Positions 23,301 to 64,000 of a stretch of 64,000 bases of DNA are shown piece by piece. A model generated the notes under the pieces. It did no database searches. It was not told the DNA's origin and saw nothing but the letters and a program-made list of their open reading frames with translations. Origin of the DNA: a virus. Lineage: Duplodnaviria; Caudoviricetes. The translations under genes were made by a program, and so were the position numbers. The number at the start of each line of letters is the position of its first letter. Within the stretch, counting starts at the first letter, position 1. The stretch spans positions 9,470 through 73,469 of the IMG/VR virus record IMGVR_UViG_3300012665_000704. One strand, 5' to 3'.

Positions 23301-26300
23301 TAGCTCTGCACCAGTAAGAGAAAATAGTATTAATCTACGATTTGATAGAACTTCATATACTTCACAGGTAACTGAGTGGGCATCAGGTGATTTTTACGGT
23401 TCATTTTATGCAGGAACTTATTCAAACAGTGACCAAGTTTCATCTTCTTCAATAGCTTTGCAAAGCACTCAACCACCAATTGATACTATTTTGGCAAGTG
23501 CTCAGGGAGCAACATTTGAAATTTTAGATGCTACTAATGATCAAACATTAACATGGTCTTCACGCACAAGAGAAACGGTACAAACATATGGACCGGCTAC
23601 CCTATATCCAAATGCTATAAGAATCAATCCATCAACAGGTGGCTCACCTGTTGCAGGAGAATTAGGTTCTACTATAGGTTTCTATATAGGAATGCCAGTA
23701 AAATTTGTAGGTGCAACTGTAGGAAATCTAGTTAATGAAACTACTTACTATGTAAAATCTTTAATAGATTTACCTAATCTAGTTACATCAAATCTAGAAG
23801 CCACTGGTTTTACTGTATCAGCGACTGTAGATGAAGACGGTGTGCCAGGATCAACATTTGTTCTTTCAACAGCAACTGTTACGGCTGCTGGCTTACCAAT
23901 GTTTGTTGGTGAAGTCACTAATACTGCTGTGCTAACTATTAATTATAGCGGCATTAGAAACGCAACAGTCACTACAGCAGGTACCAACACAATTACAGTA
24001 TTGCTTACTGCTACTGGACAAAATGGCACTAATGGATTGTATACAGGTATACCTGTATACTTTACCGGAGATGTGTTTGGCGGAATTTCTGAGAACGAGA
24101 TTTACTATGTAACTACTGTTACTGGTCCACAGACATTCACTATGTCTACTCAAACAAATCCAACAACATTAACTATTACAGAAACAGACTCTGGAACTGA
24201 TGCAATTACTTGCGAAAGCACATTATCACTTTCTGTTAATGAACCCGTAGTATTCACCGGAGATGTATTTGGTAATATTGTTGCAGGAACACAATATTAT
24301 ATCAGAGAGTTATTCTCAGGAAATATAACATTCTCAATTTCTGAAACTATTAACGGACCTGTATTTGCACTTGCATCTGATACCGGTTCTTGCACAATGA
24401 CAAGTCAAAAGGACACCGTAACATTACAAGATGATACCGGTTCTATGACAATGAATGTCAGCTTACCAGTAAGTCCAGGACAAGTTAACGGACAACTGTT
24501 TACATTATATCCTACTTCTCAACAATATATCAACCAAACAGGTGTAGTTACAAACTTGATAGAAAGAGAAATTAGTGCAACCCTATCAACTGTAAACAGA
24601 TTGTGCTTATCAACCTTTAGTGGTGGCATTTTAAATCTATACAATAACTTTGATTTTGATGTTGCAAGCAATATAGGTGGTCTAACAACATCCGGTGGAC
24701 CATACACTGTAACCAATACAGGAACAACTATAGTTAACGTGTCTAGTACTAGCAGTTCAGGTAATTGGTTAACTGTACCATTAGATACTAACCCGTATAC
24801 AACTGATGTGTTGTATTCTGGAATGCCAATAATATTCAGCGGTGTATCATTGGGCGGTGTATTATTAAATGTAGTTTATTATGTAGATACTATTGATGGA
24901 AGCCCCCCAGTTGGCTCAGGAAGATTTACCATATCAGAAACTTCTGATTTTTCAAGCGGTATATTTGTGGTTACCAATGATAACGGGGACATGATTGGTA
25001 CAGGTGAGCCATTCATTCAGGTAGCAGATACGTTAAGTGATGCAACAGGTCCGGTAATGTTAACACAGGTTGTTGGCACTACCCCAACATTTGATGTGAG
25101 TTATATTTTAGGCGGGTACCGAGTAACAATCCAAAATTCAGGTAGTGGATATGCAATTGACAACACTATAACTATTTTAGGAACTAATTTAGGTGGCACT
25201 ACACCAGATAATGATTTAGTGATGACTGTTTCTTCAGTTAATGCTACTGGTGGAATAGTATCTACAATATGTAACGGAACACCTGCAGGCACAATTGATC
25301 AATACTATTTTAAAGTTGTGTCAGAAAATCAAGTAGAAGTTTACGAAAATGAAGCCTTGAGTGTTCCGGTAAGTGGACAAAACTTCCCTTATGGTGGAAT
25401 TACTTCAACTACCGCTACAGTAGCAACTGCTTCAAATGATAGATTTACAGTAACTAGTTCAGCCGACTTTAGTATAAATGATCCGGTCGTATTTACTGGA
25501 ACAGTATTTGGTGGAATTACATTAGGTCAAACATATTATATTAAATCTAAACCAACAGGCACTACTGTTACTATTACAGAAACTGTAGATGGTACTGTAT
25601 TCAATATCACGACAGATGCTACAGGTTCGATGACAATGGCAAAATCAGGTGATTATGCACTATTACCGGAGCCATTCTTCTTTAGTCCTAGTATCGTGAA
25701 ATATAACAATCGTGTTTATCAATGTATTATAAGTAACAATGACCCTGAATTTATTTTAGGTAAATGGGAACTACTAGATCCGGGTAGTAGAAAACTTAAT
25801 GGGTTAGACAGAGTTATTGCATATTACAGACCTACTGTAAATATGCCAGGTGTTGATTTAACTCAATTAGTTACCGGAATAACATATCCAAATAGTACAT
25901 ATTTGGGTAATGCATTTGCTCCGGATGACGAATTTACAGTAGATGTTAATTTAACAGATCAACCATTTTACCCAACCGGAATTGATTTAAGTACTATTAT
26001 TTGGAATGGGATAACATATCTTGCAGGATCAAATGCAGAAACGTATTCATCTATTAATTTAAGTGAGACTGGTTCATCTTGGATCATTAATAAAATTGCC
26101 AATCAATCAATTGGTGTTACTGATTTGCTTTTTGCAGGAGGCAGATATGTTCTAACTTCTACTAATCCAGCTACTCCTATATTAATAAGTGATAATGGAC
26201 TTACTTGGATTACTAACGGAACATTTACTCCGTTCGATTCAACACCATACGATTTAACAACTTTTGATATATCTTCTGTGAGTGTTCCTTCTCTATTATT

Positions 26301-29300
26301 GAATGGGGTAGCGTACCATAACGGAATATATATTGCAGTAGGTAATAATATTATTTCATCTACTGATTTGTATTCATGGGTTGAGCGTTATGCATTCACA
26401 AGCACTACATTATCAAATGTATTAAAAGATGTTGCTTATGTTAGCACTCCTGGATATACTGGATTTGTTGCAGTTGGATTAGGTCAGCGTTTAGTTAGTG
26501 GAACAGCAGTAAATGTCGCATTAATATTCACTAGTACGGACGGTTATAACTGGAATCAAGTATCGTTTACTGACACAGTATTCTCATTAAATGCAATTGC
26601 ATCAAACAGCGGTAGCATTGTTGCAGTTGGTGATGATGGTATTATTTATACTAGTTTCAATACTATTAACTGGTTCGCACAAACATCACCAGTGTCAGAA
26701 AACTTAAACAATATAATTTGGGATAGTTATAATAATCAATTTGTTGCAGTAGGTGACAATGGAACTATATTGACAGGTGATGCTAATGGCAATACATGGA
26801 CAGCACAAACATCTGGTACAACAGAAAATATTGAAAGTGTTGTTTGGAACAATGACGATGAAATTTATATTGCTGTTGGATTAAACAATACAATTTTACA
26901 AAGTGTCGATGCTATAACATGGGTCTCAATCGCTACATTTGAAGTATTACCTTCAGTCTATGATATACAAGGTGATGCATTTACTGCAGGCTATGGTCCG
27001 GAAGAAATGGTTCCTGGGGTAGTATCTGATACTATTACTATGACTGTTGCGACCCGTCCAGGAACTAACTGGGACGAAACTGTTTATCAACATGTTGGCT
27101 ATAATGTAGTATCTATTGAATTATCACCAATTAACGCACTGCAAACAGAGTACAGTTTTGTAAATGTAACCTCAACTCCTGCACAAGCAAGCGTGTTTAT
27201 TATTGACTATACAACAGAGTTAAGCACAACAATTTATGAAGGTATCGACTATACAATAGATTGGGTCAACAAAGTTGTGACTTTAACAACTCCATTAAGT
27301 TTCGTTACAGTAGGTACCTCAGATAGATTGCGTATTGATGTATATGAAGTTGGTAACGGTGATCAGTTAGTAAAAGCAAATACAGAGACTGATCCTATTA
27401 GATTAAACACCACTACTGGATTTCAAGAAATATATGTAAATGCTAATTATAGTGCAGACATTTATCAAGGTTCAGGTATTATTAGACCTGATACTAATCC
27501 ACTAGAAGCGATAGCGATTGCGACCGATGAAATAACGGACGCAATTACTTGTGAAAGTGTTGAGAATTTCGTATTGAACGGCACAATTACTTTTAGTGGA
27601 GCAGTGTTTGGTGGAATTGTAGAAGACCAAGTTTATTATGTAAAATCTATTAGTTATGTATCAAATAGAATTACTATTTCTGAAATATTTAATACAGGTT
27701 CAGGCACTGCAGGAGCAACGTTCCCGTTGACTACTGCAACCGGATTAATGACTGCAATTATTCAAGTTGGTACCGGTACAGTATGGACAACACCTAGCGT
27801 GTTCCACAATGGTACTAAGTTGGTATTGGGTCATACTGCAAATATAACTAGAACTAAATCAGGAACCAATACTATAACTACAAATACTACCGGTGACTTA
27901 GTTCCTAATCTATCTATTAAGTTTAGTTCAACTATGTTTGGTGGAGTAATCGTACCGTTACAAACATATTACATTAAAACAATTTATGATGGAAATGAAT
28001 TTACAATTTCAGAAACACCAGGTGGCGCAGAATTAGAATTGACTAACGCTACAGGTGGTGCAATCTTCATATCAGGTGATTATGCAATTGGTATTGCAGA
28101 TAATGGAATTTCTGCTGCGGTGTTGTTGGCAAATGAATATGATGCATTAACAGACTATATCACTTATACTTTCTTTGGACAAACATTACCTGTACAGTAT
28201 GGTTATACAATCCCAGAAGTGCAACTATTTGAGGGTGATGGATCAACCGCATCATTCACATTAACTAATTATGTGGGTGATAGTAATGTTACAAGTGCAA
28301 TTGTTGAAATTGATGGTGTAAGACAAACTATTTCTGCCTATACTATAAGTGCAATCTCTAACACTATATTGTTCAACACACCTCCGTCAAACGGATCAAC
28401 TATAGCAGTTACCTCATATAATTTGACAGACCGTCAATATTTTAATACACAGTATGGCATTACAGGTTCTTCTGGTGCAACTACGACTACTATCGTAGTC
28501 AGTGACACAACTCATAGCGTGGGCACGTTTGACCAAGATACTCCAACTGCTCAGACATTTGACCAAGATACTCCTAGTGTAGTTTTATATGATCAAGAAT
28601 TAGATTGGCTAACATTGGGTTCAGGCTCAACAAGTAGTCTATCAATTAATTTCCCAATCGTATTCCAAGCACCAACTTTAGGTGGATTAATTGCTGGACA
28701 AATTTATTATGTGGTAGAAATATTAAATTCAACTGATTTTGTTGTGTCTACTCAGGTAGATGGAACACCTACAACAGTTACTACTGATAGTGGTTCAATG
28801 AATGGTGTGGTTAATGGATTAACAGTCGCTAATATAATTAATATTAATAATGCTATTTCTAGTCCTTTGGCAACTGTGTTAGTAACTGGAACTACTGGTG
28901 GTGCATCAGATTATGTAGTGTGTGGTTCTACAACTGGATTAATTGTAAATCAACCAATTATATTTAAAGCCGCAATAACTACTGCTGGATCATTCACAGT
29001 AGGTGACACTTATAAAATTACTACACTAACCGGTACTTCACAAGTGCAGTGGAACACTACTGCTGGAACTTCGGGAGTAACATATGTAGTGGGTGATATA
29101 TTCACAGCCGCAACAGTGGGTGCTGGTACTGGTCAAGCATTGTTAACTAACTTAGGTGGAATCGACACATTAGGTGAAGTTTACTTTATTCGTTCTGTTG
29201 CAAGTGGAACTGAATTTACAATTAAAGATCAGTATGGTGCATTAGTTAATCTAACTACTGCTAGCGGTAGCTTAGTTGGGTTTATGGGTGGTCTATCTGC

Positions 29301-30789
29301 AATTAGTGTAACAACTGGTATAGATCATAATTTATCAGAAAATGAGATAGTTCGTATTGATGGAACATTAGGTTCAGTACAACTTAATAATAATACTTAT
29401 TATGCTAAGATAGTAACAGATACTATATTCATGTTGTATGATCAACCCTATAATCCGGCACTGAATGCAGTTAACTATCCAGTAACATTCTCATCTACTT
29501 ATATATCAGGTGGTTATGCTTGGTTGGATGGATTATTTACTATATCATGCACGAATACAATTAGTACTTCTTCTACTGGAAATAGAATTACAGTAGATAG
29601 CACTGAGTCATTAATTCCTAATACTCCTATATACTTTACTTCAATAGGTGAAAGTCAAGGTACTGACATATTAGGAAATATCCTAGCAAAAACTGAATAT
29701 TATGTTTTAGCGGTAAGACCTGAAGTAATTGCTGACGATTTCATCGTTGGTAATGAATATCAGATTGTAGACCTTGGTGATACTGATTGGAATACTTGTG
29801 CTGGAACAAGTAGTGTTACGTATGCAATTGGAGACACTTTTGTTGCAGCCGCAACTGATCCAGGAACTACCGGCATCGCAATCGGTTTACAAGAGTTTAC
29901 TATTACTGAAACTAGATTCCCTAATGACGCTGAAGTTGTATTAACTGATGCTACTGGTTCAGTTGATGTTTCACAATTCCAGCAAGTTAATGTTGATAGA
30001 TTGTGGGTAACAATAAATGGATACAGAGTTCCTTCTTCATTGTTAAGAATTAATGAATATAATAATTTAAGTATTCTGTCAACTGTTAGTACCGGCGATG
30101 AAATTGTTATTACAAGCATGATGCCAACAGCAACACCGAATGAAAATGTATATTTGTTAAATGTAACGACTACTAATCAACCTACAGTTTATAGAGCAAA
30201 TACTCAAACTAGAACTTGGTTAACTCAACCATTGAGTTTCACGGATGAAGTTATTTACTTAAATGATGCTACTAGGGTTACTGATTCTATCGTACAAGAA
30301 GTAATTGCGCCCGCGCCAGTTGACAGTAAATATAATATTGGATTAGAAGCTAATAAAAATGTAATATGTCACGTGACCGTTTACAACAATACAACTTCAA
30401 CTCTAGTAGATCCTGCTAATTTTGAAATTATTATTGTTGATTTAGCTCCAATATTACAGATTTCCGATGAAGTAAGCACTGGAGATTCGTTGACAGTGAC
30501 TACACTTGAAGGAAGATTGTTGTTTGTTAATGGAGAACAGATTGCGTTTGCTGAATGTGATATTGTAAATAATACAGTCAGTGGATTAACTAGAGGGGCA
30601 AATGGTACAGGGGAACAAACGTTTATCCCGTTATATTCTGAAGTATTTGGTATTATTCCTAATAACAGAATGACTAATGTAACCTACGGGGATGTGTGGA
30701 ATTCTTACATTTATAATCCAATAGACGGGGATCCATTGCAAATTAGTCAGACTACAGGTGCAAATTTCTTAAAAGTGGATAGAAGTTAA
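11398..30789 (+). CDS. Giant (6463 aa) baseplate wedge/fibre structural protein with repeated beta-modules and beta-propeller-like regions
   Basis: Uninterrupted 19.4-kb ORF after gp6. Contains an EVKPYH motif (gp7-like KP.H), FG-GAP-like repeats (FGFSIA, VIGAP, LVGAP), BNR-like SxDGxxW/AVGxxGxI repeats and about 13 copies of a PVxFxGxxxGG...YYV module. Confidence 0.75.
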   Translation: MATRIRTLNFLPEIFKTQTNAQFLAATLDQLVAQPNTKKIQGYVGSKFGYGVNATDYYVTEPTKVRTDYQLDPGVVFLKENDTTANDFISYPGIVDGLKLEGGLTPDNNRLFNSQFYSWDSFTNLDKIINFNEYYWLPDGPDRVVISTDVVFNSSNYLVQSLSNEYLISSESQSATSNPTLTLLRGGSYTFSVNQNTQFWIQGEPGVTGYSPTQPNVQTRDVFGVTNNGAENGVITFEVPAQNALNEYNFPPGPAVGVVSSLPFSQVNGARVTEIGGIDGVTALDGLTVMFYNTGIADEIGYIQKFYDQTLFDEDGGVSYDEATDYPGTSEFYNNYEGGFYSPVNSNFYTITLLGDQSNPIIQLTPAGTIPTNQTITPTFGSEWVNRNFYRSVDGAIALVPYNSAILDTLYYQDGTNPNKVGIIKLANSNVSNSLDVVTEILGKPQYTAPNGVVFTNGLKVLFQGNITPEIYNNTEFYVEGVGTAIELIPVADLVSPGAFAEGSYIPFDTTPYDVGNFDSSLYLLIDPDYITIARNAINKNAWSRSNRWFHIDVINATATYNNNPELASVATIYNKASRPIIEFYPNLSLFDSGVIGKQPIDFIDFRTTDAFTLVAGQPTYYPDVAGYTDYTATIAPVTSAITSKTATQTVGLVNQVILSPNTTGIHVNDTIVFGLVTAGSFVSGTTYKIVTSGNTDFTAIGASSNAVGTVFVASGAGSGTGTAGDVDSEFGGLTSGVTYYINEIVGSRITVSTEKQGSNIVLTSASGSMVTSIYPYSTNITIATSEVFGLFEVGQYIADSTGILPAVTFITAITEVGSNTILTVSWYNQEVITGTSVASIVSADTTLSNYALFDGARVVFAADTNLSVRDKIYVSRFSSIDGTGTPVITLTEAFDGQVLADEQTSVYRGYNYKGKDFYFNAENWQQAQQKITINQAPKFDIYDENGISFGDSTVYIGTSFTGCSLFQYGLGTGISDPVLGFPLRYSTVSNIGDISFDVTLDSQTFNYVQGTNPITQKVNTGYVYNYTSRTSFVRQLGWQTAVSPSVQYQIFEFNWSIDNPITNFTCDIAPVSSSSTNWPTVQVYINNTYLPETDFTVSTTGDTTTVTIPQIDAVDTVVQVLILSDQVSSTAYYQIPINLSNNPFNEDILTVNIGDIRGQYQSMFFNNPNTMGPVFGRNNFRDLGNLVPWGNRIIQNSASLVLPGTFLRKQNHNLFNSILYNSRQYITFKNLLIDTVNNTDYNRMLSPAEMLDDAMDQITSTKTDSQPFFWSDMLPSKAPYISNTYSFANTLDVSIYPLSRIYDFDKANYYGVLVYLIRDGVTSQLIFGVDYTVSTSAPSLTVTLDLLANDQIVINEYNQTYGSYVPNTPTKLGLYPSTIPAVVVDTAYFEPTYFIVGHDGSYNKLFGPYDSTTGQLEDFRDQVLLEYETRIYNNLKLSNVIPIQTYEVIPGFFRDLQYSYDEFLEVYSESFLDWVGQNRVDYKRQFYNSTNEFSYNYRNSGNKVNREPIQQGYFRGLYLYYYDTPTPDVTPWQMIGYTDQPTWWTERYGPAPYTSDNLILWNDLAEGIDWNNGNPVVITEYIRPELLQVLPVDSNGDLVSPLASIVGNYNNNIFNRDWKVGDVGPTEFSYRRSSTWPFDLMRLYALAKPANFFNLAVDVDNYKYSAEFDQYLVNNRSHLQLGDIPIYGLGTPATSYINWIVDFEKQVGIDATTDITTLLKNLDVRLVYRVAGFSDKNLLKFYVEKSSANTTNSSLLIPDESYSVLLYDNQPFDRIVYSGVVIQITENGYQVYGNSQTNAYFKILLPKNSGYSETIEVENLSVRIADQYSDKVGIIPYGTEFYSVQEVAQFLSSYGKYLESQGMKFDQIENGIPVNWAQMIAEFLYWSQIGWEVGSITTINPSASTLVIDKDSSVVQPLTVRQRNFVLNQNLFPIQSIDLNVVRQDTAFTAQPLNQGDAISYGQFNISNFEHGIVFDNVTLFNDIIYNLITGLRQYRVSVRGTKTADWNGTVDAAGFILNQDNIQEWNREIKYTKGEIVLYKNRYWTSLTIVQPKVLFDERDWKETNYNEIQKGLLPNSQTRSFESTLYYNTDSANLENDADLLSFSLIGYRPRDYLALADLTDITQVNVYKNMIKEKGTLNAASAFKGANLPQGGINYDIYENWAIKSGEFGGVLNNNFVEFNLNQASLTGNPSIVGLTDGIFTDGVQQEVPLYSIFNYGRPITSPNILPTISATEPSALFPTAGYVNYNDVKMSSYYYSGLATATNASGTIVPINEFYVRDYVWLANYLSDWRVYTPVSLGSIINAKNNLNGTVTITFSQAHNLTRFELFGITNFDVAINNYYLVAAVVDPFRVIINLSLNPSTLNIVGEGIGLRMQSQRVATAPEIVDLPLLNNEFTKSKVWVDENNDGSWAVYRKSLNYQYDAEIIRSSSQTFGSAVAYTTPMGYLIGDADVGAVYRYTFNAEANTYTLDQAITNSASFGSYISYADDLFVISEPTSGSPKVYVYQLITTTLIDNLDPYQTISAPGGVTDWGSTTAISGDQNWLYISDTGNARVYAYRKSTITNLYESVGYISVAGLTSADNFGFSIATDYYGDTVVIGAPDQDYDVNTDNYGYTYVFARTVQNFIAPSTSQPYTPQTFALSWSPVTVTQTATATDSTNDRITITSSAGFSVNDPVVFSGDILSSGAIAQNTVYYVYDKPTSTTFRIASTRNAAAPIELATASGPPNMTVTVQTTPLFVNINGTLLEDDTYAVIGSTLYVYSGLTPTLNAGDILSVSGSNFVLTQTLDNGQTPRVGVQFGQSVDTNTYANEILVGAPFELSADNYEGAIHRFTNGGEKYGFIIGTTDCNITTPRTILINGYQVILPIGNATNASNFINAANIPNVSATSIDGKLVIQLVDIAIGFAGSKLSLTVLDSATPAEMGINIYTATQTIACPHLTGPTQFGSVIKFNEFDSFIASAPTGTRYSATTFDFTDDELDNDTVFDNNATQWIDTFANAGAVYMFDYISAYNESLNNPGKFVYAQSTNAENIDYGSQPYYGQALDFNDNRVTVGTPNFRPGYDNGQVVAYTSTSTEQDWAVYRSSAPIVDINGIANIQLFSASSNTTLDNLDYFDPLQGKLLGAIRENIDVVSNSDPAAYNSPNSTQRGLVWGADKVGQLWFDTSNTRFVNYHQNDIVYNSQYWGRIFSGSDVAVYSWIVSNVSPLDYIGPGIPYNIDTYTVNGVINAEGTIVPLYYFWVRNTNIVFEKTGKTLADSTLEAYISQPQNTGISYFAPLQPDIFALYNSGDYLNGNDTVLHIGYATGTNDDPIHNQYELIRADYADDFLPGVPGSGAGYQARSSVGITEPISLYNRMLDSMCGVDNAGAVVPNPFLPKAVQTGVLARPRQSFFYDRYDALKNYLQYANEVLAQFPITEIRNPSFLNTTGATNPSTVDNPDWTGSVLPFYDTTNYWSYINWWAPGYDNNTKSALQVSIYADLSTLTVTPGTIVTVATNGNGNSETYIYNIDGSWTRIGLTNGTIEFSSALWDYSTYRLGFGDNFFDTTPYDEYPSEETRYIIRSLNEEIYNNELLIFRNKSLILLFEYIQSETSENQNYLPWLNKTSFLDVAHTIRELRPIEVFQSDNELFLEGYMNEVKPYHVVIKEFLFKYTGTDVYEGDITDFDLPAQYNSSVQQFITPELVYSNPNGDNQYLPNDPIWQTAPYSQWFNNHGVSIVGENDYPISVLTSYVATNSNSCYVDNVTGFPVTGTILIGTELIGYSSVNLLTNQLLGLARGLENTVIQQHIPGETIFIDLPAVLVLNAGRLYDNPPKITAIIDTTIYPEPTVPAQFEAVMGLGTVIGVNVINPGQGYAVLPKIEIDPAIVVEVNSTQVNISNNTIELTIPILQTGDLIVYQPGTTSTVIGGLTSGQKYYVNLLEVSPAPIIALYASYIDAERDHNRVVLTSTGSGVQKLNLGAVASCITSSAPVRENSINLRFDRTSYTSQVTEWASGDFYGSFYAGTYSNSDQVSSSSIALQSTQPPIDTILASAQGATFEILDATNDQTLTWSSRTRETVQTYGPATLYPNAIRINPSTGGSPVAGELGSTIGFYIGMPVKFVGATVGNLVNETTYYVKSLIDLPNLVTSNLEATGFTVSATVDEDGVPGSTFVLSTATVTAAGLPMFVGEVTNTAVLTINYSGIRNATVTTAGTNTITVLLTATGQNGTNGLYTGIPVYFTGDVFGGISENEIYYVTTVTGPQTFTMSTQTNPTTLTITETDSGTDAITCESTLSLSVNEPVVFTGDVFGNIVAGTQYYIRELFSGNITFSISETINGPVFALASDTGSCTMTSQKDTVTLQDDTGSMTMNVSLPVSPGQVNGQLFTLYPTSQQYINQTGVVTNLIEREISATLSTVNRLCLSTFSGGILNLYNNFDFDVASNIGGLTTSGGPYTVTNTGTTIVNVSSTSSSGNWLTVPLDTNPYTTDVLYSGMPIIFSGVSLGGVLLNVVYYVDTIDGSPPVGSGRFTISETSDFSSGIFVVTNDNGDMIGTGEPFIQVADTLSDATGPVMLTQVVGTTPTFDVSYILGGYRVTIQNSGSGYAIDNTITILGTNLGGTTPDNDLVMTVSSVNATGGIVSTICNGTPAGTIDQYYFKVVSENQVEVYENEALSVPVSGQNFPYGGITSTTATVATASNDRFTVTSSADFSINDPVVFTGTVFGGITLGQTYYIKSKPTGTTVTITETVDGTVFNITTDATGSMTMAKSGDYALLPEPFFFSPSIVKYNNRVYQCIISNNDPEFILGKWELLDPGSRKLNGLDRVIAYYRPTVNMPGVDLTQLVTGITYPNSTYLGNAFAPDDEFTVDVNLTDQPFYPTGIDLSTIIWNGITYLAGSNAETYSSINLSETGSSWIINKIANQSIGVTDLLFAGGRYVLTSTNPATPILISDNGLTWITNGTFTPFDSTPYDLTTFDISSVSVPSLLLNGVAYHNGIYIAVGNNIISSTDLYSWVERYAFTSTTLSNVLKDVAYVSTPGYTGFVAVGLGQRLVSGTAVNVALIFTSTDGYNWNQVSFTDTVFSLNAIASNSGSIVAVGDDGIIYTSFNTINWFAQTSPVSENLNNIIWDSYNNQFVAVGDNGTILTGDANGNTWTAQTSGTTENIESVVWNNDDEIYIAVGLNNTILQSVDAITWVSIATFEVLPSVYDIQGDAFTAGYGPEEMVPGVVSDTITMTVATRPGTNWDETVYQHVGYNVVSIELSPINALQTEYSFVNVTSTPAQASVFIIDYTTELSTTIYEGIDYTIDWVNKVVTLTTPLSFVTVGTSDRLRIDVYEVGNGDQLVKANTETDPIRLNTTTGFQEIYVNANYSADIYQGSGIIRPDTNPLEAIAIATDEITDAITCESVENFVLNGTITFSGAVFGGIVEDQVYYVKSISYVSNRITISEIFNTGSGTAGATFPLTTATGLMTAIIQVGTGTVWTTPSVFHNGTKLVLGHTANITRTKSGTNTITTNTTGDLVPNLSIKFSSTMFGGVIVPLQTYYIKTIYDGNEFTISETPGGAELELTNATGGAIFISGDYAIGIADNGISAAVLLANEYDALTDYITYTFFGQTLPVQYGYTIPEVQLFEGDGSTASFTLTNYVGDSNVTSAIVEIDGVRQTISAYTISAISNTILFNTPPSNGSTIAVTSYNLTDRQYFNTQYGITGSSGATTTTIVVSDTTHSVGTFDQDTPTAQTFDQDTPSVVLYDQELDWLTLGSGSTSSLSINFPIVFQAPTLGGLIAGQIYYVVEILNSTDFVVSTQVDGTPTTVTTDSGSMNGVVNGLTVANIININNAISSPLATVLVTGTTGGASDYVVCGSTTGLIVNQPIIFKAAITTAGSFTVGDTYKITTLTGTSQVQWNTTAGTSGVTYVVGDIFTAATVGAGTGQALLTNLGGIDTLGEVYFIRSVASGTEFTIKDQYGALVNLTTASGSLVGFMGGLSAISVTTGIDHNLSENEIVRIDGTLGSVQLNNNTYYAKIVTDTIFMLYDQPYNPALNAVNYPVTFSSTYISGGYAWLDGLFTISCTNTISTSSTGNRITVDSTESLIPNTPIYFTSIGESQGTDILGNILAKTEYYVLAVRPEVIADDFIVGNEYQIVDLGDTDWNTCAGTSSVTYAIGDTFVAAATDPGTTGIAIGLQEFTITETRFPNDAEVVLTDATGSVDVSQFQQVNVDRLWVTINGYRVPSSLLRINEYNNLSILSTVSTGDEIVITSMMPTATPNENVYLLNVTTTNQPTVYRANTQTRTWLTQPLSFTDEVIYLNDATRVTDSIVQEVIAPAPVDSKYNIGLEANKNVICHVTVYNNTTSTLVDPANFEIIIVDLAPILQISDEVSTGDSLTVTTLEGRLLFVNGEQIAFAECDIVNNTVSGLTRGANGTGEQTFIPLYSEVFGIIPNNRMTNVTYGDVWNSYIYNPIDGDPLQISQTTGANFLKVDRS
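28528..28574 (+). repeat. 17-bp direct repeat with 30-bp period inside the giant ORF
   Basis: TTTGACCAAGATACTCC at 28528-28544 and 28558-28574, encoding FDQDTP twice. Confidence 0.9.
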
Positions 30790-51040: not shown

Positions 51041-51049
51041 AGGATTGTG

Positions 51050-52243
51050 ATGAAAAAAGTAGCAATGATTGGTGTTGGTAAATTGGGGCAAGATTGTGCA
51101 GAAGTAATGTATGATGCTGGCAATGATGTAGTTGGGTATGATGTAGAATATAGAACTCCTACATTTCCTATGAAAGAGACTATAGAAGAAGCAGTAAAAG
51201 ATAGAGATATTATCTTTATCGCGGCACCAACACCGCACGATCCTATCTATGGTGGCGAAACCCCAACAAGTCATTTACCTAATAAGGATTTTGATTATAC
51301 AATAGTTAAAAATATTTTAGAAGAAGTTAATAAACACGTTAATAAAAGTCAATTGGTTGTCCTCATCAGTACCGTATTACCCGGAACAGTTCGCTCTTTA
51401 CTTGAACCTTGTATCACTAACGCAAGATTCATTTATAACCCTTACCTAATTGCCATGGGAACAGTAAAATGGGATATGGTTAATCCCGAAATGGTCATTA
51501 TTGGTACAGAAGATGGTAGTATTACTGGTGATGCTAGTGAACTAATTGACTTTTATAAAATGTTTATGCAGAATGATCCACGCTATGAAGTTGGAACATG
51601 GGATGAAGCAGAGGCTATTAAAATATTTTATAATACATTCATAAGTACTAAACTTGCATTAGTTAATATGATACAGGATGTAGCAGAAACTAATGGTAAT
51701 ATGAATGTTGATATAGTCACACAAGCATTGGCAAAAAGTACAACTCGTATCATGGGACCTGCATACATGAAAGCTGGATTAGGTGATGCAGGTGCATGTC
51801 ATCCTAGAGATAATATAGCATTAAGATATCTTGCTGAACGATTAGATTTAGGTTATGATTTGTTTGATAGCATTATGACTGCTAGAGAAAAACAAGCCGA
51901 ACGTATGGCACAAAAGTGTTTACAATATGGTAAAAACATTACAATATTTGGCAAAGCATATAAGCCGGGTGTCCCGTATATAAACGGTAGTGCTAGTATG
52001 CTTGTGGGTCACTATATTCAAAAACACGGAGGTACAGTTCATTACTATGATGTAAATACCGGTGATATTGACTTACGTGAAGATTGGACTCATGTTTATT
52101 TGATTGGTTATTGGGAAGAATGGGTAGAAAAAATGTCCATACGTAACTCGGGCTGTGTGTTGATTGACCCCTGGAGGAAAGCAACGTACCAACATCATGC
52201 TGGTGAAATTGTTTACTACGGAAATACTAGAAAGAAAAAATGA
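51050..52243 (+). CDS. ugd: UDP-glucose/GDP-mannose 6-dehydrogenase family protein
   Basis: IGVGKLG, FIAAPTP, ISTVLPGT, YNP, AEAIKIFYNTF (catalytic Lys), GACHPRD (catalytic Cys) and GKAYKP. Substrate not determinable from sequence. Confidence 0.88.
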   Translation: MKKVAMIGVGKLGQDCAEVMYDAGNDVVGYDVEYRTPTFPMKETIEEAVKDRDIIFIAAPTPHDPIYGGETPTSHLPNKDFDYTIVKNILEEVNKHVNKSQLVVLISTVLPGTVRSLLEPCITNARFIYNPYLIAMGTVKWDMVNPEMVIIGTEDGSITGDASELIDFYKMFMQNDPRYEVGTWDEAEAIKIFYNTFISTKLALVNMIQDVAETNGNMNVDIVTQALAKSTTRIMGPAYMKAGLGDAGACHPRDNIALRYLAERLDLGYDLFDSIMTAREKQAERMAQKCLQYGKNITIFGKAYKPGVPYINGSASMLVGHYIQKHGGTVHYYDVNTGDIDLREDWTHVYLIGYWEEWVEKMSIRNSGCVLIDPWRKATYQHHAGEIVYYGNTRKKK

Positions 52244-58770: not shown

Positions 58771-61700
58771 ATGCTAAGAGATGTATTTTATTACGGTAAA
58801 AAACCTAACGTTCACCCAAAAGAAAAATTCGCAACTTCATTAGAAGATGCAAGAAAGCAATCCACTACAGAACATTTTTGGATAATCAATGAATATTGTG
58901 ATTATCGAGGCTTTGATTGGGATTTTGATTTTGAATTCTTACCTGATGAAGATGTATGGGCAGAAGAACACATAAATGTTTGGCCAAGTCAACATCAAAA
59001 AGATAGCGGCACTTGGCTGTGCAATACAGATAATGATGAACCTCTAATAATCTATCGTGCAGATGTTGATGTAGTTAAACGCAAAAACATTAAATCAGAG
59101 TACTGGGTAGAGTTAGATACTGTTGATAGTAATAAGTTTGATTTTAGTTGGCATCCAGACCCAACTGATCCTCCGTATGTTTATAAGTGGGGTAGCAAGT
59201 TTGCACCTGTACAACTTAAAACTTGTTTAGAATACCATACACCGGGTGCGACACAAATCAAATACATGGATCAGATTGTTGAATTACTACCAACTGATAA
59301 CTGGGTAGAAGTTCAACAGATAGATAAAGATAAATTTGACATGTCATGGAGACCTGATCCAATGGATCCTCCTATGATATATGTATGGGGTAATAAATAT
59401 TTCCCAGCAGAAACATCACCTACATTAGAATATCATGTACCCGGTGGTACTGAACGAAAGTTCATGCCAGAGAAGTTAGTACTACTAACTAACATGAATA
59501 ACTGGGAACTATTAGAATCAGTAGACAAAAATAGTTTTGACTTTGCATGGATTCCAGATCCAACTAGCCCTCCATATATCTATGTTTGGGGTAATCAATG
59601 GAATAAACCAGAAGATAAAATATCTATTCAATATATAGTCGAAGGTGCGACAGAATACAAGTACATGGAAGCACGTGCTACACGTAAACCATCTATGGAT
59701 AACTGGATAGTACCTAAAAATATTGATGCAACAACATTTGATTTTAGTTGGGAACCTAGTCCTAAAGAACCGCCGTTTATATACCAGTTCGGTACGCAAC
59801 ATCAAAAAACAGGTGGCCCTCAATATGTAGTTGAAGGTGCAACTGACATTAAGTATGTAGAAGAAAACAGAGCAACAGCTACACTTATATCAATGAAACA
59901 CTGGGAAATTCCAGAAGGGTTAGACATATCTGAGTTTGATTTTACTTGGCACCCTGATGCAACAGAAAAACCCTACATATATGTTTTTGGAACTCAATGG
60001 GCGTTGACCGGTGGCCCTAAATATATTTCGCTTGGTGCAACAGAAGTGAAATATGTGGATTCACCTATAGCAAAGGCTGCACCAAATAGACAACACTGGA
60101 TTATACCTAACGGCATAGCAGTTGAAGAATTTGACTTTAGCTGGCATCCGTATATAGAAGATCAACCTTACATCTATCAATTTGGTACACAGCATCAAAA
60201 GACAGGTGGACCTCAATACATCACTCCCGGTTCAGATGAAATGTCACCTATCAAGTATGTTGACACACGTATTCTAAAGGCAAGACATTTAAAGTCTAAA
60301 GAAAGTTTTTCTATAGTAGGTGATATCAAAATTAAAGATTTTGATTACTCATGGCATCCTGATAGTACTGAACAGCCATTCATATATGTGTTTGGTAATC
60401 AATGGCATCCTGCTGAATTAGAACCTACAATTGAATATAGAGTACCGGGAGCAACCACTAAAAAATATATTAACAATGTTGTAGCAATCGCTGGTGCTGA
60501 CATGAACCTATGGGATGTTCCTGAAGGGTTTAATAAAGATACGTTTGATTTTAGTTGGAGACCTAATCCAACAAGCCCTCCCTACATTTATCAATTTGGT
60601 TCATTGCTTGACAAAGATGATGGGCCTAGATATATAACACCGGAGAACGACGGTGAAGTTGTCTACTTAGAAAGAAAAGAAATTGTAGTTCAACCAACTA
60701 CAATAGAATTTCCTAAATACTACGTTGAAACAACATTGGAAGATTTGATTAAAAAACATCCAAACGAAATCTTCTGGGCACTAAATCCTGAGTTAGATTA
60801 TAGTTCTTTTGACTTTGAGTGGAGACCTACGATTGAGCAAGCACAGTATGTACATGCATTTGGTTCTAGTGAAAGTGAAACTACACAAACCTACTTAGTG
60901 AATAGTAACATGTGGGAAAAAGGTTTCAGAGAACTTAATTGGGTACAAGATGAACAGCTTGATGAACAAACATTATCAAAACTATTTAAGAAACCTGATA
61001 TGTTTTTTGTTGATAGAGGTAACAAAGAAGCACAAGAACGTTTTGATAAACTCAAACAACAGTTCCCTACTATACAAAAAACTAGATATCTGAATACTTG
61101 GGTTGACACAATCAATCGCTGTATCAATCGTGCAACAACCAACCTATGTTGGATACTAAACAGTGAGTTAGATTATAGTAATTTTAATTTTGACTACTAC
61201 CCTAACCCTTGGCAAATGAAAATGATACAAGTGTTTGGTACGCAATGGAGTCATTGGGGAACAACCTTCATGGTCAATCGTGACACGTTTGCTAATGATA
61301 CGAAATATGTTAAAGTCATTGAACACTTAAACAATCTTAACTTTGTAAAAGACCGTAGAGCAATTTCAACAAATGTATTGTATGATAAAATATATATTGA
61401 CCACGGAAACAAACCTATTCCTGCTGACGCATTAGTGATTCAGTATGAAGAAAGTTATTTAAATACTTTTAAGAAATTGTTAGACAAGTTGCCTGAAAAG
61501 AAAGAACACTTTGTTTGGGTTACTAGTTCAATATGCGACTACACTGGATTTGATTTTACTTATATTTGTGATCCATTTGCACGTGAACAACTTCATGTAT
61601 TTCCTAGCGACAAGCAGAAATTTGGAGATACATTTTTAATAAATGTTAATAAATTACGTGAGTTGATTTCTGAAATGAATGTATTAGAAGATTACAACAA

Positions 61701-62688
61701 AGTAAATTATAATCAACATCAACGTGCAAAACGTTTACCCAGCCCAATTATTATTACAGAAGGTGATACACATGTCTCTAGTATTGACACTAATTTTGAT
61801 TTCCCTTATGCTACGTTTGTCACGATTGACAACAAAGACACACAAGTAATCGATTCTGAACCCATGAGTATATGGGATGCAGAGAGTAAAACTATTCAGG
61901 TTACTAGTGTAGGTGGAACACGTATTGTTGTGCCTAAGGAAATTAAAAAACATTTCAAGCGTGAATTATACGATTATCCATACATTAGTACAAATAGTAA
62001 ACTTGCAAAATCTACCCCAATGGATATTGTGTTCTTAAGTAACGGCGAAACAGGTGCAGATGAAAACTATGACCATTTAATAAAAACTACACAAGGCTTA
62101 CCTAATCGTGTAGTAAGAGTAGATGGTGTTAACGGTCGTGTGCAAGCATATCATGCAGCCGCAGAAGCAAGCAACACTCCCTGGATGTTTACTGTGTTTG
62201 CTAAATTAAAAGTTAGTAACAAGTTTGATTGGAACTGGCAACCAGACAGATTACAAATTCCTAAGCATTATGTATTTCACGCTAAGAATCCTGTCAATGG
62301 ATTAGTATACGGTCATATGGCTATGATTGCTTATAATAAAAAATTAACACTTGCTAATAAAGGTAAAGGGCTTGACTTTACTATGGATGATGAGCATGAG
62401 GTTTTAGAAATTAATTCAGGTACTGCAAATTTTAACACAGATGAATGGTCAACTTGGCGTACTAGTTTCCGTGAAGCATTAAAACTACGTGCTAATGAGG
62501 ATCAAGTCAGTAAAGATAGACTTGATATTTGGTTAACTGTTGGTATGAGTAAGTTCAACGAATATAGTATGGAAGGTGCTCAACATGCAGTTGAATACTA
62601 TGAAGAAGTAAATGGTGACTTTGATAAGTTAAAACTGTCTTATGACTGGCCTTGGCTACGTGCTTATTTTGATAAAAAATATAAGTAA
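58771..62688 (+). CDS. 1305-aa tandem-repeat protein with a C-terminal GT-A-like domain
   Basis: Eight ~66-aa FDFSWxP...PYIYxFG repeats plus degenerate copies. The C-terminus (DIVFLSNGE, RVDGVNGRVQAYHAAA, NGLVYG, WRTSFREALKL) is homologous to 36076..37029. Confidence 0.7.
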   Translation: MLRDVFYYGKKPNVHPKEKFATSLEDARKQSTTEHFWIINEYCDYRGFDWDFDFEFLPDEDVWAEEHINVWPSQHQKDSGTWLCNTDNDEPLIIYRADVDVVKRKNIKSEYWVELDTVDSNKFDFSWHPDPTDPPYVYKWGSKFAPVQLKTCLEYHTPGATQIKYMDQIVELLPTDNWVEVQQIDKDKFDMSWRPDPMDPPMIYVWGNKYFPAETSPTLEYHVPGGTERKFMPEKLVLLTNMNNWELLESVDKNSFDFAWIPDPTSPPYIYVWGNQWNKPEDKISIQYIVEGATEYKYMEARATRKPSMDNWIVPKNIDATTFDFSWEPSPKEPPFIYQFGTQHQKTGGPQYVVEGATDIKYVEENRATATLISMKHWEIPEGLDISEFDFTWHPDATEKPYIYVFGTQWALTGGPKYISLGATEVKYVDSPIAKAAPNRQHWIIPNGIAVEEFDFSWHPYIEDQPYIYQFGTQHQKTGGPQYITPGSDEMSPIKYVDTRILKARHLKSKESFSIVGDIKIKDFDYSWHPDSTEQPFIYVFGNQWHPAELEPTIEYRVPGATTKKYINNVVAIAGADMNLWDVPEGFNKDTFDFSWRPNPTSPPYIYQFGSLLDKDDGPRYITPENDGEVVYLERKEIVVQPTTIEFPKYYVETTLEDLIKKHPNEIFWALNPELDYSSFDFEWRPTIEQAQYVHAFGSSESETTQTYLVNSNMWEKGFRELNWVQDEQLDEQTLSKLFKKPDMFFVDRGNKEAQERFDKLKQQFPTIQKTRYLNTWVDTINRCINRATTNLCWILNSELDYSNFNFDYYPNPWQMKMIQVFGTQWSHWGTTFMVNRDTFANDTKYVKVIEHLNNLNFVKDRRAISTNVLYDKIYIDHGNKPIPADALVIQYEESYLNTFKKLLDKLPEKKEHFVWVTSSICDYTGFDFTYICDPFAREQLHVFPSDKQKFGDTFLINVNKLRELISEMNVLEDYNKVNYNQHQRAKRLPSPIIITEGDTHVSSIDTNFDFPYATFVTIDNKDTQVIDSEPMSIWDAESKTIQVTSVGGTRIVVPKEIKKHFKRELYDYPYISTNSKLAKSTPMDIVFLSNGETGADENYDHLIKTTQGLPNRVVRVDGVNGRVQAYHAAAEASNTPWMFTVFAKLKVSNKFDWNWQPDRLQIPKHYVFHAKNPVNGLVYGHMAMIAYNKKLTLANKGKGLDFTMDDEHEVLEINSGTANFNTDEWSTWRTSFREALKLRANEDQVSKDRLDIWLTVGMSKFNEYSMEGAQHAVEYYEEVNGDFDKLKLSYDWPWLRAYFDKKYK
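59130..60650 (+). repeat. Coding tandem repeat array, 8 units of ~200 bp
   Basis: FD(F/M/Y)xWxP units start near 59137, 59335, 59537, 59738, 59935, 60130, 60340 and 60544. Confidence 0.85.
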
Positions 62689-62708
62689 AAGCTAAAAATA
62701 TATTCATA

Positions 62709-62728
62709 GTGTAACACTACTGTAACAC
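62709..62728 (+). promoter_or_regulatory. Pho-box-like direct repeat (11-bp period)
   Basis: GTGTAAC-ACTA-CTGTAAC (TGTAACAC at 62710 and 62721). Same 7-4-7 layout as PhoB boxes (consensus CTGTCAT-N4-CTGTCAY), directly upstream of the plcP-like gene. Confidence 0.55.
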
Positions 62729-62750
62729 ACTTTGAAATAAATAAGTCTAT

Positions 62751-63632
62751 ATGAAGACTTACCGTTCTATCTTTGTCAGTGATGTGCATCTTGGAACTAA
62801 AGACAGCCAAGCAGGAAAACTAAACAACTTTCTGAAACACAACACATGCGATACACTTTATCTTGTGGGTGACATTATAGATGCATGGCGAATACAACAA
62901 AACAAATGGCGTTGGAAACAAAGTCATACTAATGTAGTCCGACGTATACTCGGTCATGCCAAGCGTGGTACTAGAGTTGTTTATGTTGCAGGTAATCACG
63001 ATGAATTCTTAAGGCCTATGATACCATATGGATTCAGTTTTGGTCTAGTAGAGATACACAATCAAATAGAACATATAGGTGCTGACGGCAAACACTATCT
63101 AGTAACGCATGGTGACTTGTTTGACGGTATCACTCGATTAGCACCCTGGATAGGTTTCTTAGGTGATAAAGCCTATGACTTTATATTATATCTCAATAGC
63201 AAGTTTAATTGGATACGTCATAAAATGGGTTTTGGATATTGGTCATTGAGTAAGTACCTTAAACATAAGGTAAAAAAAGCAGTGGACTTTATATTTCAGT
63301 TTGAAAGTAATCTAGCAGACTATTGCAAGAAGCGTGGCTTTGATGGTGTTATATGTGGGCATATACATCACGCAGAGATCAAGGAGATTAACGGTGTAAT
63401 GTATATGAATGATGGTGACTGGGTTGAGTCATGTACGGCATTAGTAGAACATCATTCAGGTACATGGGAAATTGTAACTTGGACTAAGGAGAAGGATGAT
63501 GTGGGTATTGATACTAATAGCAGTACACCTGAACGATCCAACAGATCAACCAGGGAGAGTGGAACTACAGTTCGCGGATCAAACAACTTGCGAGCAAGTC
63601 CTAAGCACCCTCAAGTGGCAACTGAAATTTAA
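62751..63632 (+). CDS. plcP: Metallophosphoesterase, PlcP-like phospholipase C (often annotated UDP-2,3-diacylglucosamine diphosphatase/LpxH-like)
   Basis: YRSIFVSDVHLG, LVGDIIDAW, GNHDE, HGDLFD, CGHIH and NDGDWVESCTALVE. Has GNHD rather than the GNRD of canonical LpxH and is adjacent to an Agt-like GT4. Confidence 0.75.
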   Translation: MKTYRSIFVSDVHLGTKDSQAGKLNNFLKHNTCDTLYLVGDIIDAWRIQQNKWRWKQSHTNVVRRILGHAKRGTRVVYVAGNHDEFLRPMIPYGFSFGLVEIHNQIEHIGADGKHYLVTHGDLFDGITRLAPWIGFLGDKAYDFILYLNSKFNWIRHKMGFGYWSLSKYLKHKVKKAVDFIFQFESNLADYCKKRGFDGVICGHIHHAEIKEINGVMYMNDGDWVESCTALVEHHSGTWEIVTWTKEKDDVGIDTNSSTPERSNRSTRESGTTVRGSNNLRASPKHPQVATEI

Positions 63633-63672
63633 AAGTTTTAAGGTAATAGGCGAATGCAAAAAACAATTCTGA
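63496..63672 (+). CDS. Small putative exported protein (58 aa) overlapping the 3' end of the plcP-like gene
   Basis: MMWVLILIAVHLNDPTDQPGRVELQFADQTTCEQVLSTLKWQLKFKSFKVIGECKKQF*. Strong AAGGAGAAGG SD, hydrophobic N-terminus, two Cys. Confidence 0.65.
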   Translation: MMWVLILIAVHLNDPTDQPGRVELQFADQTTCEQVLSTLKWQLKFKSFKVIGECKKQF

Positions 63673-64000
63673 TAGTTACAGACAATTTACCGGAGCAAAT
63701 TAATGGTGTGGTTACGACATATAAAAATATTGAGGCTTGTGCGCTTTTGGATGGTTATAGCGTTGTTTACATTACTCCCGGGGACTTCCGCCACTTTGAT
63801 TGTCCTGGCTACAACGAAGTCAAGATTGCCTATCCAAGGCAGATGGGCAAGAAGATTGAGGCGCTCAGTCCGGATTATATCCACATCGCCACAGAGGGTC
63901 CTATTGGTCTGTCTGCTAGAAAATATCTTTCAAAACATAATATTCGGTACAATACTGCTTATCATACTAAGTTCCCTGAAGGACTTAGAGCCCTATTTGG
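63654..64000 (+). CDS. GT4 glycosyltransferase (Agt/MgtA-like diacylglycerol glycosyltransferase), 3'-truncated by the window
   Basis: MQKTILIVTDNLPEQINGVVTTY...PGYNEVKIA...PDYIHIATEGPIGL...TAYHTKFPE; open to the window end; not in the ORF track. Confidence 0.8.
   Translation, partial: MQKTILIVTDNLPEQINGVVTTYKNIEACALLDGYSVVYITPGDFRHFDCPGYNEVKIAYPRQMGKKIEALSPDYIHIATEGPIGLSARKYLSKHNIRYNTAYHTKFPEGLRALF

Follow-up and report, generated by a model that had tools for sequence, protein, structure and literature searches.

The last 1.3 kb of a 64,000-nucleotide stretch of DNA from a giant freshwater phage ("the window" below; part of the IMG/VR record IMGVR_UViG_3300012665_000704) holds three closely packed genes on the plus strand: an open reading frame (ORF) of 293 amino acids for a PlcP-like metallophosphoesterase (the "esterase"), an ORF of 58 amino acids, and the 115-codon 5' part of a gene for an Agt-like glycosyltransferase of family 4 (GT4). 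Headed by a Pho-box-like promoter, this module of a PlcP-type phospholipase C, a small overlapping gene and an Agt-like GT4 is probably a phage-borne copy of the bacterial PlcP-Agt operon, carried by jumbo phages for lipid renovation during phosphate starvation. In a phosphate-short infected cell, the PhoB of the host, or a regulator with the same binding site, would turn on the operon together with the phage pstS. The esterase would remove the phosphorylated head group from glycerophospholipids of the host membrane, and the glycosyltransferase would turn the resulting diacylglycerol into glucosyl- or glucuronosyl-diacylglycerol, a glycolipid free of phosphorus. The membrane would remain intact while its phosphorus is freed, plausibly for the replication of a very large phage genome. 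The pairing of a PlcP-like esterase with an Agt-like GT4 in a phage had been proposed in an initial annotation of this DNA, and is supported by all sequence-level tests that were run.

The esterase is encoded by an intact ORF (62751..63632, plus strand) and matches the Pfam family Metallophos (PF00149; 43 bits, cut-off 21.5), which places it among the calcineurin-type metallophosphoesterases. It carries the complete set of metal-binding motifs of these enzymes (DxH, GD, GNHD, H, GH and GHxH), and the residues D11, H13, D41, N82, H83, D84, H120, H204 and H206 never vary among 40 diverse homologues that were aligned. As the initial annotation had stressed, the esterase has GNHD where LpxH (UDP-2,3-diacylglucosamine diphosphatase) has GNRD: residues 79-86 read VAGNHDEF, with GNRD at the aligned position in the LpxH proteins of E. 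coli and Klebsiella. Identity reaches 55% to the PlcP orthologue of Pseudomonas aeruginosa (243 amino acids, E 2e-93) and 44% to that of Sinorhizobium meliloti (261 amino acids, E 9e-86), whose metal-binding motifs match; these two orthologues are 47% identical to each other. In comparison, identity to E. coli LpxH is 25% over 121 amino acids (E 2e-6). A published screen for PlcP uses BLASTP at E < 1e-40 with Phaeobacter MED193_17359 as the query; with the P. aeruginosa and S. meliloti orthologues as stand-ins for that query, the esterase passes the threshold against both.

Both PlcP orthologues were taken from plasmid-collection records that hold chromosomal regions. In the P. aeruginosa record, a gene labelled LpxH is followed, with a 4-base overlap, by a glycosyltransferase labelled family 1 and then by cyaB; from the gene neighbourhood, we take these to be PA3219, PA3218 and PA3217 (PA3217 being cyaB). 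In the S. meliloti record, the gene labelled LpxH lies near genes for a LuxR-type regulator and an acyl-homoserine lactone synthase, and is presumably, again by its neighbourhood, SMc00171 beside SMc00170 and SMc00168 (sinR and sinI). SMc00171 is reportedly the S. meliloti PlcP studied by Zavaleta-Pastor and co-workers in 2010. The published identity of PA3219 to the S. meliloti PlcP is 46%, and to the S. meliloti and Phaeobacter PlcPs 46-47% (Jones et al., 2021; PMC8528852).

The relationship to LpxH is distant. The best curated matches of the esterase are LpxH models, yet the scores fall far under the equivalog cut-offs: 43.7 bits on NF003743 (cut-off 134) and 32.9 bits on TIGR01854 (cut-off 190.35). 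All five examined bacterial genomes with an esterase homologue also encode a separate, true LpxH, which exceeds the cut-off with 220-333 bits; the homologue itself is, in four of these five, the second, sub-threshold match to the LpxH model (36-57 bits). The two proteins are separate paralogues in the genomes that have both. A maximum-likelihood tree (quick IQ-TREE search, LG+G4, with support from the SH-like approximate likelihood ratio test, SH-aLRT, only) was built from 97 rows: 7 phage esterases, 80 bacterial homologues, 2 cultured-phage proteins, the 2 characterized orthologues and 6 LpxH sequences. The 7 phage rows were left after thinning 61 distinct phage sequences by discarding any at least 88% identical to one retained. 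In this tree, the branch that sets off the six LpxH sequences has a length of 4.63 changes per site and a support of 100, and the phage esterases form one clade (support 100), which is nested in the smallest well-supported clade holding both characterized PlcP orthologues (88 rows, support 98). The esterase therefore stands with the PlcPs of P. aeruginosa and S. meliloti, and LpxH stands across the long branch.

By structure, the nearest relatives are LpxH proteins, which share with the esterase the metallophosphoesterase core with an inserted helical lid. An AlphaFold2 model built from 40 homologues is confident for residues 1-250 (mean predicted local distance difference test score, pLDDT, 84) and disordered for residues 253-293. 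The closest solved structures by sequence are LpxH chains (E 6e-5), and in a Foldseek search of the PDB the top 24 matches of the model are all LpxH (E 7e-11 to 5e-9, 17-21% identity, template modelling (TM) score 0.5-0.66), followed by generic phosphoesterases. Overall identity to LpxH spans 17-25%. Because LpxH, the best structural match, is a lipid-binding metallophosphoesterase, the modelled fold is assigned to the lipid-handling phosphoesterases with a helical lid, though not to LpxH itself. At the level of the family, sequence, tree and gene order show the esterase to be PlcP-like, as had been proposed; the predicted substrate would be membrane glycerophospholipid.

The GT4 gene starts at 63654 and is open at its 3' end (63654..64000, plus strand; ORF 63654-63998), since the assembly record stops at position 64000 of the window, the final base of its 73,469 bp. 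CheckV estimates the completeness of that record at 13%. The 115-amino-acid fragment contains IVTDNLPEQINGVV, HIATEGPIG and YHTKFPE, the motifs by which the initial annotation had recognized a GT4 behind the esterase. It scores 24.4 bits against Glyco_transf_4, below the cut-off of 28.5; full-length relatives have about 329-340 amino acids. The fragment is 93% identical to the start of P0124, a protein of 334 amino acids encoded by a 191-kb viral contig (L048), which has both GT4 domains (Glycos_transf_1, 81 bits; Glyco_transf_4, 52 bits). P0124 in turn is 39% identical over 329 amino acids (E 1e-80) to the P. aeruginosa Agt1 orthologue, the product of the gene directly 3' of plcP, and the motifs of the fragment are kept in this alignment. 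Agt1 (PA3218) yields monoglucosyl-diacylglycerol when expressed in E. coli, and Agt2 makes the glucuronosyl lipid (Jones et al., 2021; PMC8528852); Agt1 is 41% identical to the Agt of Phaeobacter (PMC8528852). The phage GT4 is thus Agt-like by family, and its predicted product is either glucosyl- or glucuronosyl-diacylglycerol.

The order of the two genes is that of bacterial operons. Homologues were collected from bacteria with a 9-sequence alignment as the query and one genome per species, and the best 80 of 598 confirmed relatives were retained. These loci belong to Alpha-, Beta- and Gammaproteobacteria, with single rows from other phyla, and their esterases are 45-59% identical to the phage protein. 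Of the 80 loci, 60 encode, no more than 4 kb from the esterase, a GT4 with about 29-44% identity to that of the phage, mostly immediately 3' and on the same strand. This bears out the earlier statement that plcP and agt are often neighbours, and agrees with a survey in which plcP-agt is the commonest context of plcP and the gene behind plcP is either agt or one for another glycosyltransferase (Sebastian et al., 2016; PMC4796936). The closest known counterpart is the PlcP-Agt1 operon of P. aeruginosa (PA3219-PA3218), in which the esterase (55% identical) and the GT4 (39%) follow each other in the same order on one strand, behind a Pho-box-type repeat; a Pho-box-like repeat also precedes the phage module. 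Unlike this operon, the phage module is carried by jumbo phages, has an inserted, overlapping gene of 58 amino acids, frequently has a family 2 glycosyltransferase (GT2) in place of the GT4 (55 of 80 loci, see below), and has TGTAAY as its commonest half-site. The plcP of S. meliloti likewise differs from the phage module, in that no glycosyltransferase gene lies next to it.

Among phages, the module is conserved and widespread. At least 598 viral contigs carry the esterase, and the best 80 of these (78-92% identical, on contigs of up to 525 kb) were compared as the phage loci. A protein database holds at least 8000 esterase matches, of which the top 120 are 82-95% identical. In the 80 loci, the next long gene after the esterase encodes a GT4 in 24 and a GT2 in 55, while one locus ends before it; none has both. 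The glycosyltransferase starts about 24 bases past the stop codon of the esterase ORF in most loci, and the spacing differs where the esterase ORF has another length and in L053, where an extra ORF of 296 amino acids (L053:6901-7791) is placed between the small gene and the GT4. Loci of the GT4 and GT2 types are interleaved in the esterase tree. No GT4 occurs anywhere in four of five near-complete genomes of the GT2 type, and no GT2 in any of the five GT4-type contigs examined. The fifth GT2-type genome (G001, the 525-kb record of L023) has two esterase copies, at 82180-83911 and about 184131-184973, one with a GT4 and one with a GT2; it is either a genome with both types of module or a chimeric assembly. 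The GT2 proteins have 236-240 amino acids and match the Pfam model for GT2 and, more weakly, that for GT21 (26.7-29.2 bits, cut-off 21.7). GT21 is the family of the processive diacylglycerol glycosyltransferase that Sebastian and colleagues reportedly also found beside plcP, and to which the phage GT2 may be linked. In the ESM Atlas, the GT2 falls into generic GT2 clusters only, some of them automatically named carotenoid glycosyltransferases, which serves as a lead only. Neither the exchange of GT4 and GT2 behind one esterase nor the overlapping mini-gene is described for bacterial operons in the literature cited here.

The small gene (63496..63672, plus strand) overlaps both the 3' end of the esterase ORF and the start of the GT4 gene. 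Its product of 58 amino acids has a hydrophobic N-terminus (MMWVLILIAVHL) and two conserved cysteines, and the pattern kept among relatives consists of the hydrophobic start, a PGR motif and the two cysteines. The frame is open in all of the 71 phage loci (out of 80) that have this stretch of DNA, with a length of 56-59 amino acids except in two loci, where it extends to 74 from an upstream TTG, and in one, where it is cut to 42 by the end of the locus. Over the same bases, the extension of the esterase frame stops anywhere from residue 261 to 296, and the mean identity to the window across 54 distinct loci is 0.65 in the small frame versus 0.36 in the esterase frame. The remaining nine loci lack the stretch altogether, and their esterases have 252-254 amino acids. 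Because the small frame is the better kept one and these nine loci have the short esterase, the small ORF is read as a real gene and the enzyme as a protein of about 250 amino acids, its catalytic part being residues 1-250 (62751-63500, plus strand) by conservation and model. The final ~43 codons of the 293-amino-acid ORF are probably not a functional tail of the enzyme. The small protein has no match in Pfam or PHROG and no similarity to the small ORF that overlaps the esterase gene of phage Mosig.

The genomic setting of the pair is that of a phage, as initially assumed. All long ORFs of the window lie on one strand, and genes for a gp25-like baseplate protein, a hub and a wedge precede the esterase on the same strand. 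The wedge protein is about 35% identical to wedges of jumbo myoviruses with genomes of 350-470 kb (Serratia phage BF, Pectobacterium phage CBB and Sinorhizobium phage Phosso). In relatives, the pair is located deep within phage genomes of 330-525 kb. No DNA match to window positions 62000-64000 was found among GenBank phages. The baseplate wedge gene is followed immediately by one ORF of 6463 amino acids (11398-30789, plus strand). The upstream neighbour of the esterase (58771-62688) encodes a protein of 1305 amino acids with about ten repeats of the type FDFSW(H/R)PDP..PPYIYVWG, and has no match in Pfam, NCBIfam or PHROG; homologues of it are also found upstream of the module in L012 and L056, which speaks against a chimeric join in the window. 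Parts of the esterase and GT4 genes are covered by short contigs (105-436 nucleotides, 85-99% identical) from four RNA libraries, each from a different study; as RNA libraries may hold DNA, and the runs were picked for containing these sequence words, the contigs are no proof of transcription. No run had coverage of bases 62400-62777, which carries no weight either way.

Five phage records in GenBank have an esterase homologue: Pelagibacter phage Mosig EXVC030M, Synechococcus phage S-SRM01 (two records), an unannotated faecal contig and an uncultured phage of 595 kb. In Mosig, the gene (Mosig_00120; 46.6% identical) is placed beside a divergently transcribed gene of the pstS family, and in S-SRM01 (37.3% identical) it lies among host-derived accessory genes for photosynthesis and redox functions. 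Both are labelled LpxH, and neither has an adjacent glycosyltransferase gene, in contrast to the module of the jumbo phages. A word search of the two genome papers (PMC7892664, PMC8557907) returned no mention of the esterase gene.

The connection to phosphate, which the initial annotation had only inferred, gains support from the sequence in front of the esterase. Alignment of esterase upstream regions gave the motif TGTMAY-N5-TGTMAY, which the window matches exactly with the direct repeat TGTAAC-ACTAC-TGTAAC (62710..62726, plus strand), whose hexamers are spaced 11 nucleotides apart in the register of CTGTCAT-N4-CTGTCAT. The exact motif is found no more than 80 nucleotides upstream of the esterase in 51 of the 80 phage loci, and a form with one mismatch in 12 more. 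Across all 80 loci (863 kb) there are 84 exact copies, mostly the 51 before the esterase; other copies stand just upstream of an adjacent pstS (9 loci), or just 3' of the glycosyltransferase gene, before a following pstS or a gene of about 215 amino acids with a GATase-like domain. In the 64-kb window itself, the exact motif has two matches versus 0.33 expected, the second one on the minus strand within the giant ORF. With one mismatch allowed there are 10 matches versus 12 by chance; only exact copies were used, since this count is not above chance. Three complete genomes (345-367 kb) have two to three exact copies each, and one to four of a reversed control pattern. One genome of 359.6 kb (G002) has just two exact copies, both on the forward strand: one stands before the esterase, and the other before a pstS 173 kb away, which reaches 391.6 bits against the PstS equivalog model (cut-off 339). 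The cis element is therefore common to the module and pstS. That it might be a general phage promoter was rejected on account of its rarity, i.e., two exact copies in the window and two to three per complete genome.

Pho boxes take the place of the -35 element. In the window, a -10-like hexamer, TAAATA (62738..62743, plus strand), begins 11 nucleotides after the repeat and ends 7 nucleotides before the ATG of the esterase; the hexamer is read from the sequence, and its role as a promoter element is putative. Of the 51 loci in which the motif is exact, 40 have a TAAATA-like hexamer that starts 10-11 nucleotides past the repeat. The Pho box consists of 11-nucleotide direct repeats with seven conserved bases, which are CTGTCAT in E. 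coli (PMC4415409). The phage repeat fits this format, having two or more 11-nucleotide direct repeats with a CTGTCAT-type half-site. A Pho box consensus has been drawn upstream of PA3219 (PMC8528852), and the sequence upstream of the orthologue used here reads CTGTCAC...CTGTCAC. Perfect TGTCAC/TGTCAT copies are present in L018, L020, L037, L046 and L056, and forms with three repeats occur in relatives as well. The repeat may hence be a Pho box adapted to the PhoB of the host, by which it would be bound. Since the -10-like hexamer is so near the start codon (it ends 4-7 nucleotides before it in the window and relatives) and no Shine-Dalgarno sequence is present, the esterase mRNA may be leaderless or nearly so. 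The pstS and GATase-like genes behind the same motif differ from the esterase in having long, structured leaders. The ~215-amino-acid gene, with BPL_N and GATase-like domains, lies beside the module in 26 of the 80 phage loci (L046:5198-5845, L051:7710-8366, L056:7709-8356, L017:7990-8643, L066:4880-5524 and others); several copies have the Pho-box-like repeat and TAAATA, followed by a conserved hairpin leader and a strong ribosome-binding site.

Several observations weigh against a phage-borne PlcP-Agt operon under phosphate control. The locus-tag assignments of the characterized PlcPs lean partly on gene neighbourhoods, and the GT4 of the window is a 115-codon fragment of about 334 codons. 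None of the 80 bacterial loci has a homologue of the GT2 at 4 kb or less from its esterase, so that gene order offers no support as to the acceptor of the GT2. Among bacteria, the nearest sisters of the phage clade (L084, L085 and L152) have no GT4 within 4 kb; no lipid genes were seen among the neighbours of one of these, L084, or of the Pseudomonas graminis copy (L135). In 17 of the 80 phage loci, the motif is absent from the 90 nucleotides upstream of the esterase even at two mismatches, although some of these bear it upstream of an adjacent pstS instead. The commonest half-site in the phages, TGTAAY, is one conserved position off CTGTCAT, and a phage-specific regulator may recognize the repeat.

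The last of these points leads to the most serious alternative, which we nevertheless consider rather unlikely: the repeat could be the site of a phage-encoded regulator, or define a class of phage promoters for the accessory block, with expression unlinked to phosphate. The prevalence of TGTAAY over TGTCAY among the motif copies would fit such a regulator, as would the motif preceding the ~215-amino-acid BPL_N/GATase-like gene. Yet the repeat has the 11-nucleotide register and the half-site of the Pho box, occurs in perfect TGTCAC/TGTCAT form in several lineages, and stands 10-11 nucleotides before the -10-like hexamer, which is where a Pho box would stand in place of the -35 element. Moreover, the motif is rare in whole phage genomes and there marks pstS, the archetypal gene of the Pho regulon.

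A second alternative accepts the enzymes as proposed but places the pay-off elsewhere, in a changed envelope, whose glycolipid-rich membrane could block superinfection, alter receptors or porins, or stabilize the cell until lysis. Lipid renovation is known to alter the membrane proteome of bacteria and phage adsorption (PMC9804370, PMC9938194), and further envelope genes are encoded nearby: a fatty-acid desaturase of the DesA family (400.4 bits, cut-off 400), found no farther than 4.2 kb from the module in 18 of the 80 phage loci (e.g., L003:8243-8947), and a Gram-negative porin within about 5 kb in 6. As the primary benefit, this is nonetheless improbable in our judgement, given that the promoter motif is common to pstS and that pstS adjoins the module in 13 of the 80 loci, of which 10 have it immediately upstream and 3 immediately behind the GT2. 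Sharing the motif with a gene for phosphate uptake would tie expression of the esterase to phosphate supply. Both pay-offs could also apply together.

The same genes characterize the surroundings of the module. The desaturase is a second membrane-lipid gene of the same accessory block. The porin (Porin_4, weakly similar to Neisseria PorB) is encoded directly upstream of the esterase in L010 (4845-5753), L014 and L015, and nearby in L018, L041 and L056; a phage-encoded porin hints at a beta- or gammaproteobacterial host. Relatives also have genes for peroxiredoxin, superoxide dismutase, rubrerythrin, NifU, TerC, serine hydroxymethyltransferase (SHMT) and ClpP nearby. The surroundings of the pair are thus a block of accessory genes that derive from hosts and vary in order.

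Upstream in the window, positions 37023-58762 form a dense cluster with at least seven radical SAM enzymes (three with SPASM domains, two binding B12), an NAD epimerase/dehydratase, a divergent nucleotide-sugar dehydrogenase, a protein with a methyltransferase domain and a NodU-like carbamoyltransferase. By its gene content, the cluster looks like a pathway for tailoring sugars or metabolites in a phage. The esterase and glycosyltransferase might belong to it and help to build a glycan of the virion or cell surface, with the esterase acting on a sugar-phosphate or a lipid-linked intermediate. The pair is located about 4 kb downstream on the same strand, and glycosyltransferases are common in such clusters, but we give this possibility very little credence: the pair moves independently of the cluster, with upstream neighbours that vary among relatives (pstS, porin, the GATase-like gene, DUF4337 and others), it is headed by a promoter motif of its own, its homologues in bacteria are organized as two-gene plcP-agt units, and no member of the nucleotide-sugar dehydrogenase family occurs among 98 neighbouring ORFs in the loci of 10 relatives. 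The initial suggestion that the ugd-like gene of the window (51047-52243) could supply UDP-glucuronate is unsupported: this gene is not linked to the pair in relatives, and is classified as a divergent nucleotide-sugar dehydrogenase in a separate cluster. Its score is 151.6 bits where the subfamily cut-off is 189.8, and the best UDP-glucose dehydrogenase model gives it 103 bits (cut-off 670).

Finally, the notion that the esterase is an LpxH-type UDP-2,3-diacylglucosamine hydrolase, and that the pair acts in the synthesis of lipid A or lipopolysaccharide, would agree with the Joint Genome Institute names of close relatives, the GenBank annotations of Mosig and S-SRM01, the nearest solved fold and the listing of viral 'lpxH' under lipopolysaccharide biosynthesis (PMC10653327, PMC9611531), but is hardly tenable and was rejected, considering the scores below both equivalog cut-offs, the GNHD motif, the 25% identity to LpxH versus 44-55% to the PlcP orthologues, the true LpxH retained in all five bacterial genomes with a homologue, the long branch between the groups, and a partner GT4 that resembles Agt1 rather than an enzyme of lipid A synthesis.

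A phage-borne PlcP-Agt operon would find its closest functional analogues among the phosphate-stress genes of other phages. The pstS and phoA genes of cyanomyoviruses are said to be under the control of the host PhoBR system, as reported by Zeng and Chisholm in 2012. They resemble the phage module, with its associated pstS, in being genes of the kind found in host Pho regulons, placed behind a Pho-box-like site. In contrast to pstS and phoA, which serve to take up or release external phosphate, the lipid module would draw on the membrane lipids of the cell itself. No report of a phage-encoded PlcP or Agt was found in open-access and bioRxiv full texts, and a 2025 study states that little is known about the lipid strategies of infected cells at low phosphate (PMC12282109). 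More broadly, one may envisage that jumbo phages of freshwater carry a regulon of their own that answers to the PhoB of the host, composed of pstS, PlcP, a small membrane-associated protein and interchangeable GT4 or GT2 enzymes, which would convert phospholipids to glycolipids and release phosphorus for genomes of 350-520 kb. This wider proposal is tentative, and we hold it with slightly less than even confidence.

The module is widespread: in addition to the at least 598 viral contigs, there are thousands of near-identical metagenome proteins, and homologues exist in a cultured SAR11 phage and a freshwater cyanophage. In surveys of eastern Mediterranean surface waters and of Lake Baikal, viral 'lpxH' is filed under lipopolysaccharide biosynthesis (PMC10653327, PMC9611531). 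If the present interpretation is true, 'lpxH' in surveys of viral metabolic genes from phosphate-poor waters would stand for lipid-renovation genes, and a systematic mislabel, by which such genes are filed as LpxH in databases and viral gene surveys, would be mended. To an order of magnitude, a small Gram-negative cell has some 10^7 phospholipids, which is about as many phosphorus atoms as would go into a burst of a few tens of genomes of 350 kb, so that the stake would not be trivial for a jumbo phage. To our knowledge, the known phosphate-stress genes of phages act on phosphate from outside (pstS, phoA) or have an unknown role (phoH). With a phage-borne PlcP-Agt operon, phosphorus would be drawn from an internal source as well, the membrane of the host itself, and the operon would be a new kind of virus-carried metabolic gene.

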